Positions 7,771 to 58,677 of a DNA stretch of 64,000 bases are shown here, one piece after another; position 1 is the first letter of the stretch; each line of letters starts with the position of its first letter. The notes beneath the pieces are model-generated. The model worked only from the letters and a program-made list of their open reading frames with translations. It was not told the origin of the DNA and made no database searches. The stretch is from assembly GCA_965197905.1 (NCBI GenBank), contig CBDAOB010000004.1:1728001-1792000 (forward strand), given 5' to 3'. Source of the stretch: Candidatus Latescibacterota bacterium. Its GTDB lineage: Bacteria; Latescibacterota; UBA2968; UBA8231. Both the position numbers and the translations under genes were made by a program.

Positions 7771-7804
7771 AAAAAAGCAGTCCATCCGATGAAAGATGAA
7801 CTGC
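7771..7804 (-). terminator. Intrinsic terminator of the leftward ncRNA
   Basis: Minus strand GCAGUUCAUC-(8 nt)-GAUGGACUGC-UUUUUU: 10-bp stem with one G.U, then U6. Confidence 0.85.
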
Positions 7805-7986
7805 TCATTCGAGAAAATCAAGAGTGTGGCGATCGTGCGGTGTGTGATCGAGAGCCGCAGACGAGACCTTCAAACGAGGCGGTGTGGGGAGGTATTACTT
7901 TGAAGATCCCGATACCCGAAAAGGGGAATTCGAGTTCTGCGGCACTTCCCGATCATTAGTCACACGCTCAGCGGATCGCCACACTC
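7771..7986 (-). ncRNA. Candidate structured non-coding RNA, family unknown (three-way junction with C-rich loops)
   Basis: Perfect 13-bp closing stem (7822-7834/7974-7986) and four further helices whose G.U pairs work only on the minus strand; TATAAT 6 nt upstream of the first stem base; terminator downstream; no convincing ORF. Confidence 0.75.
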
Positions 7987-7992
7987 GAAGCA

Positions 7993-8011
7993 ATTATACA
8001 CTTTTTTGTGT
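7993..8011 (-). promoter_or_regulatory. Promoter P1 of the ncRNA (-10 TATAAT) overlapped by operator 1
   Basis: TATAAT at 7998..7993; ACAC-TTTTTT-GTGT at 7998-8011; no good -35. Confidence 0.7.
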
Positions 8012-8058
8012 GCGCTACGAAACGTGAACGTATTGCGACTTGCCTACGGTCGACACAC

Positions 8059-8087
8059 AATTTACACACCCCACTGTGTATTGTCAA
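8059..8087 (-). promoter_or_regulatory. Leftward promoter P2 with operator 2 in its spacer
   Basis: TTGACA (8087..8082)-17 nt-TAAATT (8064..8059); ACAC-CCCACT-GTGT at 8066-8079. Confidence 0.7.
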
Positions 8088-8128
8088 GAAGAATCTGGGG
8101 CTGATCCACTCACAACCTCAGAGAGAAA

Positions 8129-8157
8129 ATGACACAAAACTGTGTATGCCTTATTAT
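8129..8157 (+). promoter_or_regulatory. Promoter of the XRE gene overlapped by operator 3
   Basis: ATGACA (8129-8134)-17 nt-TATTAT (8152-8157); ACAC-AAAACT-GTGT at 8132-8145. Confidence 0.7.
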
Positions 8158-8204
8158 AGGTAGCGGGCATTCCTCTACATTACATAAAACCAGACGGTAG
8201 AGAC

Positions 8205-8723
8205 ATGGCATTTGCTGAAATAATAAAGAAAGCACGCAAGCGGTTGCGGCTAAGCCAAGCCAGCCTTGGTGGGGAGATCGGGGTGTGGAACACCTACGTC
8301 GGACAGATCGAGAAGGGGGAAAAGGTCCCCTCAGATGAGGTGGTCATAAAACTCGGGAAGGTTCTCGACCTCAACCTGAACGAGTTATTATTGTCAGCGT
8401 ACAAAGCAAAGGCCGACTCGGCCGAAGCACAAAGCCTGTTCACCCAAATGGAAACCGCACTCAACGACCCTGTACTGCAACAGATCGTTTCTTCCACCAA
8501 CCCCATACACCCGGGCGTACTGGCCGCTTTGAGCGACGAGAATATTCGCGCCGCCCTCACCCAAGAAACATGGAGAGAAAGTTTCTCTCGGTGTTACCGA
8601 ATAAACAGCCGCAAAAAACGGAATATTCAGGCGCTGTTGGCGTTGGTGGAAGCGATGAACGACAAACAGTATTCAGCGATGATGAATCTTTTAGAAGCTA
8701 TGGAGCTAGAAGCAGGAGAGTAA
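8205..8723 (+). CDS. XRE-family helix-turn-helix regulator with an unrecognised C-terminal domain
   Basis: IKKARKRLRLSQASLGGEIGVWNTYVGQIEKGEKVPS..IKLGKVL matches the Cro/C1-type HTH pattern. Confidence 0.88.
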   Translation: MAFAEIIKKARKRLRLSQASLGGEIGVWNTYVGQIEKGEKVPSDEVVIKLGKVLDLNLNELLLSAYKAKADSAEAQSLFTQMETALNDPVLQQIVSSTNPIHPGVLAALSDENIRAALTQETWRESFSRCYRINSRKKRNIQALLALVEAMNDKQYSAMMNLLEAMELEAGE

Positions 8724-9458: not shown

Positions 9459-9797
9459 TTGCCGCCGCTGGTCAGCGTCCACGGGTTCGCGGCTGCGCTC
9501 TTGCTGATTCTTTGTTTGAGCGGCACCTGGAATTGTCGCGACTGGCGCCGCGACCCACGGCACGGGCTCTTGCTTTTGTCCGCAATTTCGCCGCTACTAG
9601 CCTGGCTGTTTTTTCCCGGTCAGCTGTTGATGCTCTTGTCGTTGCCGGCGCTGTTGGTACTGACTTCCATGGGATCCGACTCTACCCGCAATGGATTCGT
9701 CAGCTGCTGTGGAGCGCCCTGGTTGTGGTGTACGGCGCAGATTATTGGCGCATGTTTGGAAGCGGCTGATTTCGGACGCTCCACCTCCTGGAGTTGA
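9459..9797 (+). CDS. Hypothetical membrane protein (frame stays open further upstream; start unclear)
   Basis: Several hydrophobic segments; fills the gap before hrpA. Confidence 0.4.
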
Positions 9798-9798
9798 C

Positions 9799-12700
9799 AT
9801 GTCCCCCTTTTCCAGCTTCGACCCCATGCCCGACTCGGCTAGCCATCCGGATACCACCCTCGCTGAACTGCGCGAGCGTTTATCCACGTGTATGCTCCTG
9901 GATCGGGCTCGCATAGAACGGCGACTTCAGCGACTCGACCGCCACAAAGACCGGGCGAAGGAACTCGGCATTCTGCAGGAAAAGGTCGAGCAGTCACTCC
10001 GTTTGCTTGAGCGCCGGCGGCGGGGGCTGCCGCCAACAAGCTATCCCGAGGAGCTGCCTGTCAGCTCGCGCCGCGCCGAGATTCAACGCGCCATTGAAGA
10101 AAACCAGGTCGTGGTGGTCGCTGGCGACACGGGGTCCGGCAAGTCGACGCAGCTGTCCAAGATCTGTCTGGATGCGGGGCGTGGTGTGCTGGGAAAGATC
10201 GCCTGCACCCAGCCGCGTCGAGTAGCGGCCCTCTCGGTGTCGCGGCGAATCGCTGAGGAGCTGGGCGTAGCTTGGGGACGGGAAATCGGGAGCAAGATTC
10301 GCTTTAAAGACCACACCGCCCCCGAGACCTACATCAAGATGGTGACCGACGGCATCCTCCTGGCAGAGATACAGGGAGACGCGGATTTGTTGGAGTACGA
10401 TACCATCATCGTCGACGAAGCCCATGAGCGCAGCTTGAACATCGATTTCCTCATCGGCTATCTGCGTCTGCTGCGTCGGCGCCGTCCCGACTTGAAGATT
10501 GTCATTACCTCTGCAACCATCGATACGGAAGCGTTCTCGGAGGCATTTGACCAAGCCCCGGTAATCCAGGTGCACGGGCGAATGTTCCCGGTTGAGGTCA
10601 GGTACTGGCCCCTGGAAGAACTGCTCGAGAACCGCGAAGAGTACACCTACATCGACGCCGTGCTCACTGCGGTGGAACAGACCCTTCAGGAAACTCGGGA
10701 AGGGGATGTGTTGGTGTTCCTACCGGGGGAAAACGACATCCTCGAGACCCGCGACCGCCTACGGGACCGCGCCGAAGGGGTGGAGATTCTACCTTTGTTT
10801 GGACGCTTGTCCGCCGCCGACCAACAGCGCATTTTTCGGCGCGGAGACCGCCGGCGCATCGTATTGTCCACCAACGTCGCGGAAACCTCGTTGACAGTTC
10901 CGGGCATTCGTTACGTGGTCGATACGGGCATGGCTCGCATCAGCCGCTACAATGCCCGCACCCACACTCATCGGTTGCCCATCGAACCGGTGTCGCAGAG
11001 TTCGGCGGATCAGCGCAAGGGTCGCTGCGGTCGGCTCGAGGGCGGCATCTGCATTCGGCTCTACGGGGAAGAAGATTTTGAGTCGCGTCCCCGATTCACC
11101 TCTCCCGAACTGCAGCGGGCCAACCTCGCGGACGTGATTCTGCGCATGTTGGCCCAGCGGATCGGCGACGTGCGCACGTTTCCCTTTCTGGACCCTCCCG
11201 GGGAACAGGCGATCCAGGGGGGCATCCAGCAGCTCCAGGAGCTGGGGGCCCTAGACCAGCGCCAACGACTCACCCGCTTGGGTCGGCGTATGGCGCGGAT
11301 GCCGATTGCGCCCACTGTGGCCCGCATGGTGCTGCAGGCAGACCAGGAAGGGGTACTGGGAAGAGGTGCTGGTGGTGGCGGCGGCCATCAGCGTGCAGGA
11401 CCCCCGCGAACGGCCGATGGAGCTGAAGGCTCAAGCGGATGAAATGCACCAGCGCTGCGTGCATCCCGAGTCCGACTTCCTCACCCTGACCAACATATGG
11501 AACGCCTATCGCGGATTGGGGGGGCGGCCGACCCAGGGCCACATGCGCCGGTTCTGCAAACAAAACTTCCTGTCGTTCATGCGGATGCGGGAATGGCACG
11601 ACGTCCACCAGCAGATCAAGGAGACCCTGCGCGAGCTGGGCGGTTTCAAGTGGGGCGGGGGTAAATCGAGCTACGAGGGTGTGCACCGTTCAGTGCTTAG
11701 CGGCCTCTTGAGCAACGTCGCCTTGAAGCATGAACGGAATCTCTACCGCGCCGCCCGTGGCCGTGAGGTGATGATCTTTCCCGGCTCGGGCTTGTTCGTG
11801 CGCGGGGACGCCAAGAAATCGGCCAGTCCAGAGTGGATCGTCGCCGCCGAAATGGTCGAGACATCGCGGCTGTTCGCGCGAACGGTGGCGCGCATCCAGC
11901 CGGAATGGCTCGAAGACCTGGGCACCCACCTGTGCCGTTACTCCCACAAGGAACCGTATTACAACGCGCGCTCGGCGCGGGTGCTGGTGCGCGAGACGGT
12001 AACCTTGCATGGGTTGGAGGTGCTGCAGCGGCGCGTACCGTTCAAACGGATCGATCCCGGAGCGGCGACCGAGATTTTTATTCGCGCGGCCCTGGTTCCG
12101 GGCGTGTTGCGAACCCCGCATCGGTTCCTTGAAAAGAACCTGGAACTGCAAAACAAGGTGGAAACGTGGCAGACGCGCATACGGGAATACCACGGTCTGG
12201 ACGTAGAGGAATCCGCCTTCCAGTTCTCCGCCGCCCGCCTGGAGGATGTTTCATCGGTGCACGATCTGAACCGGGTAGTGCGCGACCGCATTTCCGACGA
12301 CGCGGATTTTCTCACCATGAGCGAGCGCGACTTGGTGGGCACTCGGGACACGGCCGTCAACAGGGTGTCTTTCCCGGATTTCCTGCAGGTGGAAGGCCGT
12401 CAGCTTCCCCTGAGCTACACCTATAGCCCCGGCGCGGAAGAGGACGGGCTGACCCTCGCGCTGCCGTATAAAATGGTGGAAGCCGTCGACCCGGAGGTGC
12501 TCGAGTGGCTCGTTCCGGGGTTTCTGGAGGAGAAGGTGGTCCACCTCCTGCGATCGCTTCCCAAAGCGCTGCGCCGGCAGCTGATCCCCATCCCGCAGAA
12601 AGCCCGCGAGATCGCCGCGGACCTGCGGCCGGACGGAGGGCTGTTCATGGAGACCTTGGCGGCGTTTATCGAGAGCCGCTACGGACTGCGGATCTCACCC

Positions 12701-13720
12701 CAGGATTGGGGTGGGGACCCGCTCCCGAAGCACTTGCAGATGAGGGTTGACATTCAGGGCGCCAATCGACAGACGTTGGTGGCGGGGCGCAACCTGGCCG
12801 GCATGGTTGACCAGCTGGAGCGCCACGATACGCCAGTGGAACTAGAAGCCTGGAAGCAAGCCTTGGAGGAGTGGGAACAAACCGAGCTGCAGACCTGGAC
12901 GTTTGGAGATCTGCCGGAGCGAATCGAGATCACCGAAGTCACCGGAGTTTCGCTGGTTGCCTTTCCCGGAATCGAGGTGGGAGATCGCGGTGTCGATCTG
13001 CGGCTGTATCGAAATCGCCGCGAAGCGCAGACGGCCAGCCGATCGGGGATCTTCCGCCTAACGCAGATTCAATTGGAAGAGGAGCTCGCCTGGCTCGAAC
13101 GAAGTTTGCGGGACCTGGATCAATTCCACCAGACAACCCGGTTCATCGGTGATAAGCAAGCGGTCCGCGAGGCGGCGATGGACCATCTGCAACGGCATCT
13201 CATCTTGGTGCCGGAGCCGCCGGCGCTGCAGGTGACTGCGTTCGAGAGCCTGGTGCAGCGCGCGGTAACCGAATCGAAAGGAATCGGACCGCGCTTTCTC
13301 GATCTGTTTGGCGCAATCATCCATCTGCGGATGTCGATTCAACGCCACCCCCATCCGTACCCTGGCATCGAGGACGATCTCCAGCGCCTTGCCGGCACCG
13401 ATTTCCTCTCAAAAACCCCGTTTGCGCGCCTTCCCCACGTGCAGAGGTATCTCAAGGGGGTTGTCATGCGCGCCGATCGCTTCAGGCTGGACCCGGCCAA
13501 GGACCGACAGAAGGTCGGCCAGCTCGAACCGTTCCAGCAGCAGTTTCAAGAACGCGTCGGGGAACGGTACTCGAGGCAGCGATCGGCAATTCTGCAGGAG
13601 GTGCGGTGGATGCTGGAGGAGTTTCGCATCTCCCTATTCGCTCAGGAGCTGGGCACTGAGCAGCCGGTGTCGGCGAAACGACTGGATCGAAAGTTCGAAG
13701 AGCTGCGGTCGTCCCTGTAG
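9799..13720 (+). CDS. hrpA: ATP-dependent RNA helicase HrpA, split by a 1-nt insertion at about 11358-11360
   Basis: [34 protein letters not shown]-terminal [17 protein letters not shown]; ORFs 9691-11442 and 11306-13720 join as [13 protein letters not shown] if one G is removed. Confidence 0.93.
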
Positions 13721-58578: not shown

Positions 58579-58677
58579 TGGCGGGAACGTGTGGGAATCG
58601 AACCCACCCAGCGACGCTCTCGCGCCACCGCAACGGATTTGAAGTCCGCGGAGGCCACCAGGCACCCTTCCGCTCCC
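58579..58677 (-). tRNA. selC: tRNA-Sec (anticodon UCA)
   Basis: GGGAGCGG...GCGGACUUCAAAUCCGU...long variable arm...GUGGGUUCGAUUCCCAC...GCCA. Confidence 0.95.

Follow-up and report, generated by a model that had tools for sequence, protein, structure and literature searches.

The locus described here raises the question of what three closely spaced palindromes, lying between a gene for an XRE-family regulator and a divergently transcribed RNA (RNA1), might control. A sequence-only reading of the window (the whole 64,000-nt stretch of Candidatus Latescibacterota DNA that was analysed) had reported three copies of ACAC-N6-GTGT, each reading GTGTAT on one strand, and all three are present (Table 1). 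On balance we favor the view that the XRE protein represses a trans-acting small RNA which would pair with the leader of a distant tal/zwf/glk operon and thereby alter read-through into it. The palindromes themselves are unlikely to be fortuitous: three copies in the window compare with an expectation of 0.46, a count of three anywhere was reached by 1 of 100 shuffles, and among the 43 copies located by a genome-wide scan of the 6.69-Mb genome (G000) only the window's three lie less than 500 bp apart. A scan of the genome with a matrix, proposed with the earlier reading as a check, ranked the window sites 1, 2 and 4 when the matrix was trained without the window genus, on 43 sites from other genera. 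With this matrix, 48 of 59 XRE loci carried two or three sites in the 330 nt upstream, three carried one and eight none, as opposed to 0 of 59 control stretches; since the matrix was trained on those loci, the count is circular for the relatives, but not for the window genus. The motif is thereby conserved upstream of XRE orthologues across the Ca. Latescibacterota class, and the three palindromes are very likely operators of the XRE protein.

Table 1. Coordinates of the features at the XRE/RNA1 locus, in window positions.
Feature	Position	Strand	Remarks
RNA1 intrinsic terminator	7771-7806	-	13-bp stem and U-run
RNA1 core, 165 nt	7822-7986	-	closing stem, irregular rod, three-way junction, two C-rich loops
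RNA1 loop 2 seed, 18 nt	7875-7892	-	complement is in the tal/zwf/glk leader (G000 C4:635739-635768), beyond the window
RNA1 hairpin bearing loop 1 (short, C-rich)	7914-7935	-	by folding and covariation; no long complement found
Operator 1	7998-8011	.	in transcribed RNA1 leader; overlaps genus-specific TATAAT (7998-7993)
RNA1 promoter TTGACA-17-TAAATT	8059-8087	-	scanner 10/12; predicted start ~8052; in 38/38 RNA-bearing loci (L039 matched via a second TTGAC)
Operator 2	8066-8079	.	palindrome fills spacer of RNA1 promoter; >9 bits in 37/38 loci
Predicted XRE promoter ATGACA-17-TATTAT	8129-8157	+	scanner 10/12
Operator 3	8132-8145	.	covers -35 and spacer of XRE promoter
XRE-family repressor, 172 aa	8205-8723	+	HTH_3 at residues 7-61; all-helical C-terminal domain, predicted dimerizer

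Each palindrome had been placed on a sigma70-type promoter. This stands for the leftward TTGACA and the rightward ATGACA promoters, but not for P1 at the first site, which had been taken as the promoter of the RNA. P1, whose -35 is merely TTCGTA, was not called by the promoter scanner, and a -10 of 5-6 matches out of 6 recurs at its spot in just 2 of the 13 long-leader relatives; it is genus-local, and site 1 usually falls within the transcribed leader. In 24 loci a gap of 4-13 nt separates the leftward TTGACA-17-TAAATT promoter from the stem of the RNA, so that this promoter belongs to RNA1; an operator-like site accompanies it in 37 of 38 RNA-bearing loci, G020 being the sole exception. Among the 51 loci where a site is present, loose thresholds place a rightward promoter over the last operator in 36 and next to it in 12, leaving 3 with none. 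The conserved promoters predicted at the locus, which the DNA contigs of three sequencing runs cover piecewise, are these two only.

Repression by a dimer is the standard reading of operators over divergent promoters for XRE repressors, and we consider it highly probable that an XRE dimer represses both promoters here; seated on the three 14-bp palindromes, it would turn down both its own gene and the divergent C-rich RNA1. The operators and their placement over both promoters can be read directly in the DNA, and from these we infer binding and repression. Genomes that have lost the regulator are instructive in this regard. In all 11 genomes that keep RNA1 without XRE, the best upstream operator score is -13 to 4 bits, as compared with 16-20 bits upstream of RNA1 in G000, G004 and G008, and the RNA1 promoter is mostly retained in these genomes despite the operator decay. 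In G020 the XRE gene is in pieces with stops and operator 2 is decayed, and in G043 and G044 the operator is kept and XRE is found on another contig. The proposal that XRE represses itself and the RNA is thus well supported by comparative genomics, given operators that are found at orthologues and lost without XRE. A wider XRE regulon is unsupported; the candidate at C5:2246546 of G000, a palindrome overlapping the TTGACA-17-TACAGT promoter of a 174-aa unknown gene in a layout like that of the XRE promoter, scores below 12 bits by the matrix.

The protein itself matches HTH_3 with 41.2 bits against a Pfam cut-off of 23, and has homologues, nearly always in single copy, in 94 of 132 class genomes; the titles at the 59 XRE loci are mostly Ca. 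Latescibacterota, the remainder being Gemmatimonadota or unclassified. Its AlphaFold model is all-helical (pLDDT 91.6), and residues 1 to ~85 alone match solved folds, the best being P22 c2 (Z 12.1, rmsd 2.0, 65 aligned); in the structure search the HTH resembles both P22 c2 and 434 repressor domains (Z 10-12 over ~65 residues). A match to the capH model is confined to residues 1-94, and DdrO aligns structurally over the HTH only. The remaining C-terminal domain had been suggested as a sensor, with structure modeling as the means to check it. The modeling yields a dimer interface instead and leaves the sensor role unsupported: the predicted homodimer scores 0.57 versus 0.00 for the best control (20 of 30 solved pairs attain this mark, as does 1 of 23 single chains), with contact agreement of at least 82%, pLDDT of at least 79 and interface residues mostly in the C-terminal domain. 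The model thus supports this domain as the dimer interface and is neutral on sensing. The domain has no family in Pfam or NCBIfam; its best structure-atlas score of 0.80 is a lead only, a PDB profile search returned a designed helix bundle (E 2e-7) and non-significant STI1/DP-repeat matches (E 0.15-0.26), and folded alone from a single sequence it reached a pLDDT of just 46. Longer homologues were not found, which is weak evidence.

The direct neighbors of XRE encode a GT4 glycosyltransferase and a HEAT-repeat protein, neither of them the cognate metallopeptidase expected beside a protease-cleaved repressor of the DdrO/CapH/ImmR type, and the earlier statement that no toxin, phage or integrase gene is adjacent agrees with the eight proteins scanned around XRE. 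Other arrangements of the regulator exist. In genus g22 (L084:5001-6785, also L026 and L089) the N-terminal ~95 aa of XRE continue in frame into a complete methylmalonyl-CoA mutase domain; a single operator lies upstream, and RNA1 is absent. Open frames of 609-672 aa occur at the XRE match in 15 of 15 g22 genomes, translated only for L084, and the gene is possibly a repressor-enzyme fusion. At L077, L078 and L079 are distant XRE homologues whose C-terminal domain has an additional helical repeat and which lack upstream operators. Elsewhere in the window, an HrpA-like helicase (9691-13720) is split across two frames near 11306-11442, a possible assembly frameshift, and a tRNA-Sec gene lies on the minus strand at 58583-58677.

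As for the divergent transcript, folding and covariation establish RNA1 as a real structured RNA. The minus strand from 7986 to 7822, followed by the terminator, folds into a Y shape with z = -8.2, and in an alignment of 29 of the 38 distinct copies found, 98% of cells are paired and 12 of 37 pairs show double changes, a level reached by 0 of 500 shuffles; sliding the alignment lowers pairing to 40-48%. Frequent G-U variants fix the strand. Rfam gave no match at gathering score for the locus and none meaningful at E 10. A model of RNA1 detects it once per genome in 57 of the 132 genomes of the class and in 53 of the 140 of the phylum, always within the window's family. The compact repressor-sRNA module of the sequence-only reading is not self-contained, in that RNA1 persists at the same locus in the 11 XRE-less genomes and has a predicted partner in trans. 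In families f2 and f4 a differently built RNA occupies the place of RNA1 (L011:2140-2400 and 18 other loci; ~215 nt, with several hairpins, two C-rich loops that are invariant, and an operator within it), having the promoter, the operators and the two kinds of C-rich loop in common with it. A search for a long complement to loop 1 of RNA1 or to the f2/f4 RNA, in 76 and 17 genomes, turned up no second site that is conserved; candidate short Shine-Dalgarno matches exist.

Two other identities for such an RNA deserve consideration. Its size, long closing stem and single copy across the family would suit a highly diverged 6S RNA whose terminal loop has been co-opted, particularly as Rfam annotates no 6S in G000 and 80 other genomes from the four families of the class, nor does one lie downstream of the four zapA-like genes. 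We find this very improbable: RF00013 fails to match the locus even at E 10, or five diverged copies at E 1, and the three-way junction, with short arms of 6 and 12 bp, contrasts with the central bubble and long apical stem of 6S. The 6S-like matches that do occur, confined to family f11 (L242 and L243), differ from RNA1. (The ZapA-family genes of G000 are spread over contigs C5, C4 and C3.) More remote still is the idea that RNA1 acts in cis, as leader or attenuator of the GT4 glycosyltransferase operon, which lies directly downstream at most loci, XRE-less genomes included. The RNA1 core is closed upon itself ahead of a separate terminator with no antiterminator seen, the downstream gene is a different one in G004, and a cis role would leave the distant complement unexplained.

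That complement belongs to loop 2, which is near-invariant over its 18 nt. Its best non-self complement in the genome (Table 1) scores 24, a value that none of 12 shuffled loops approaches beyond 22, and lies 1.1 Mb from RNA1 on the same contig, between a sigma70-like promoter and the tal-zwf genes, whose families were confirmed on relatives' proteins. No other long complement of loop 2 was found genome-wide in G000. A second complementary site is likewise present in 31 of 31 g13 genomes and 7 of 8 g15 genomes. The 41 leaders compared, which were selected for carrying the seed, have the layout promoter, seed ~6-11 nt past the predicted start, hairpin, U-run, and then tal, zwf or glk. The seed often sits within a small hairpin; the leader hairpin proper is conserved, with double changes in 5 of 14 pairs, and, of the 39 leaders that were parsed, 33 have at least 6 U in the 9 nt after it, weak U-runs being those of five g12 genomes and G018. 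A leader peptide was rejected, its AUG not being conserved, and no conserved toxin ORF of a type I/III toxin-antitoxin system was found beside RNA1, nor is a short ORF in the leader hairpin conserved. At G000 C4:635620-635770 (L094) there is a second hairpin followed by a U-run, conserved among long leaders; the 5' arm and AT-rich loop of this hairpin could also serve as a DNA promoter. The zwf gene at C4:632907-634401 is split, possibly by an assembly frameshift.

The predicted RNA1-leader duplex is one stretch of 17-24 bp, with a calculated energy between -34 and -47 kcal/mol in every one of the 32 genomes that have both RNAs. Cofolding gave no binding, but the cofolding model is unable to represent loop-linear pairing, and for this reason sums of opening energies were used: opening loop 2 costs 0.3-3.1 kcal/mol, leaving a net binding of -12 to -26 in 21 of 21 genomes. 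In G004 and G020, of one genus, a C-G pair is replaced by U-A through changes in both partners, a compensatory exchange that constitutes a single event. Eight further copy differences were noted, of which six keep G-U pairs and two do not, these being an A-A mismatch in G000 and G002 and a bulge required by one subclade of g13. The conserved fold of RNA1, its complementarity to the seed, and the order of promoter, seed, hairpin and U-run in the leader are again features of the sequence, from which we infer pairing in vivo and its output; that RNA1 does pair with the leader we regard as probable.

It could be argued that the shared 18-mer is instead a DNA site of another protein, or a relic duplication, and that the RNAs do not pair. 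A shared motif would likewise change in step within one genus, and the leader copy lies just past the predicted start, a typical repressor position. The 18-mer, however, is non-palindromic, has two copies only, is oriented antisense between the transcripts, and maps precisely to the open loop of a hairpin that covaries; with six of the eight other copy differences G-U compatible as well, we hold this explanation to be improbable.

The fate of loop and seed in related genomes bears on what the pairing is for. In 12 genomes the leader is syntenic but has no seed, and 10 of these also lack an XRE match (G001 and one piece of G006 being uninformative in this survey); loop 2 is decayed in G008, G003, G007, G009, G010, G021, G083, G086, G087 and G088; the two appear, from these comparisons, to decay together. 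Loop 2 is almost intact in G012 and G015, where the leader lacks the seed, and six genomes, 58-89% complete, have the seed and no match to XRE or RNA1. A search of five XRE-less genomes for a relocated partner produced merely scattered one-mismatch matches. On a GT4 tree of 28 rows the loss of XRE takes two changes, so that the co-loss counts amount to ~2-3 independent events.

Pairing alone would also be compatible with a sponge, in which a terminated leader of ~55-60 nt titrates RNA1, or vice versa, and the operon is outside RNA1 control. A leader made of seed and terminator has the shape of a stand-alone small RNA, RNA1 survives without the leader seed with its C-rich tracts retained, and the g15 operon has a promoter of its own downstream of the terminator; there is precedent in RosA-RoxS (PMC8216469) and in IspZ and ChiZ, derived from 5' UTRs (PMC7815308). 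A leader that served only as a decoy, however, predicts that loop 2 would be kept for its true targets once the seed is lost, and loop 2 decays in 10 genomes. G000 contains no other long complement, and in 12 genomes of one g13 subclade zwf starts ~19-28 nt after the leader U-run, which leaves it scant room for its own promoter (four of these have a weak promoter candidate). We judge the sponge unlikely, albeit by no means negligible; given that the loop decays when the seed goes and that another long complement is absent, we favor the leader as a functional target of RNA1.

Were the leader such a target, the open loop of RNA1 would pair with its 5' end and thereby set the amount of transcription that continues past the leader terminator into the pentose phosphate operon. 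We lean toward more read-through (antitermination) over less, since the paired stretch generally runs as far as the 2-3 G residues closing the terminator stem, with up to 5 nt of stem overlap in the window genus; the U-run in 33 of 39 leaders and the closeness of zwf in the aforementioned 12 genomes incline us the same way. Against antitermination, invasion of the terminator base is not favored, being no better than sparing it in 20 of 21 genomes by equilibrium energies, and the duplex of G006 and G018 stops short of the stem base without overlap. Many long leaders have a second hairpin and U-run beyond the reach of RNA1, g15 has its second promoter, and G008 and G023 keep the leader hairpin without the seed. 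Duplex-triggered decay is a possible alternative outcome. As to the inducing cue, our guess is a metabolic or redox one. The most specific form of the circuit, in which release of XRE allows RNA1 to capture the nascent leader, block the last terminator pairs and switch the operon on in trans as a natural chromosomal counterpart of small transcription activating RNAs (STARs), we regard as rather doubtful.

Taken together, the three-part circuit is apparently real and undescribed, and is made from known kinds of parts. It would provide, for an uncultured lineage, a repressor with its operator motif, a small RNA and an RNA target, along with two structured RNAs absent from Rfam and a predicted trans RNA-RNA pair backed by natural compensatory change. 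All of its parts are short and testable in E. coli or in vitro. No account of an XRE-RNA1-leader circuit or of a natural STAR was found in the literature, searched mainly in non-subscription texts without supplements, and an unnamed motif in a survey table may already cover these RNAs. The available part of a 2026 review gives small RNA effects on termination via Rho only (PMC13501541), and the kinds of attenuation given in the accessible text of another source are tRNA, protein and antisense (PMC7430163).

By homology the circuit belongs to none of RosA-RoxS, the leader-derived sponges or the STARs, and its parts nonetheless have evident likenesses among known systems. With P22 c2, 434 and DdrO/CapH the regulator shares the HTH_3 fold, palindromic operators over divergent promoters and, as modeled, C-terminal dimerization. 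Unlike phage-type XRE repressors it is a chromosomal core gene with phage, peptidase and defense neighbors not seen, and unlike these and DdrO/CapH it has a C-terminal domain without a family match and no wide regulon found by the matrix. The antisense systems of IS10 (RNA-OUT/RNA-IN) and of pIP501/pT181 (attenuation) are cis-encoded on mobile elements. There a stem-loop RNA uses its loop to pair with the start of the transcript that it targets, as is predicted here, whereas the present pair is not encoded in cis, its members being separated by 1.1 Mb of one contig.

In Bacillus subtilis, RosA is a G-rich sponge of the C-rich small RNAs RoxS and FsrA. Repressor control of a small RNA with C-rich loops, a partner RNA rich in G and a connection to central metabolism are traits that are observed or predicted here as well; the partner there is a stand-alone gene, and here an operon leader (PMC8216469). 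RNA1 shows the unpaired C-rich regions with G-rich complements by which the RoxS/RsaE type is recognized, and no homology of RNA1 to RoxS/RsaE was detected by sequence or Rfam at E up to 10. It also differs from RoxS/FsrA in its predicted duplex, one stretch of 17-24 bp, and in its probable regulator, XRE as opposed to Rex, Fur or CcpA. Closer in the origin of the partner are the 5'-UTR-derived sponges of E. coli, IspZ for OxyS and ChiZ for ChiX, of which IspZ likely arises from intrinsic termination; these too are prematurely terminated leaders that pair with a small RNA, but they are Hfq-associated (PMC7815308), whereas here the seed lies directly against the terminator stem and its loss is accompanied by loop decay. 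The nearest likeness in mode of action is perhaps to the STARs, which are synthetic: these act in trans on a linear stretch just 5' of an intrinsic terminator that precedes a gene (PMC5648800), as RNA1 is predicted to do, with the difference that the engineered RNAs extend over the entire 5' half of the hairpin and RNA1 over at most 2-3 nt of the stem, or up to 5 in the window genus. If it is true that RNA1 acts on the intrinsic terminator, it would be a natural counterpart to these engineered regulators.
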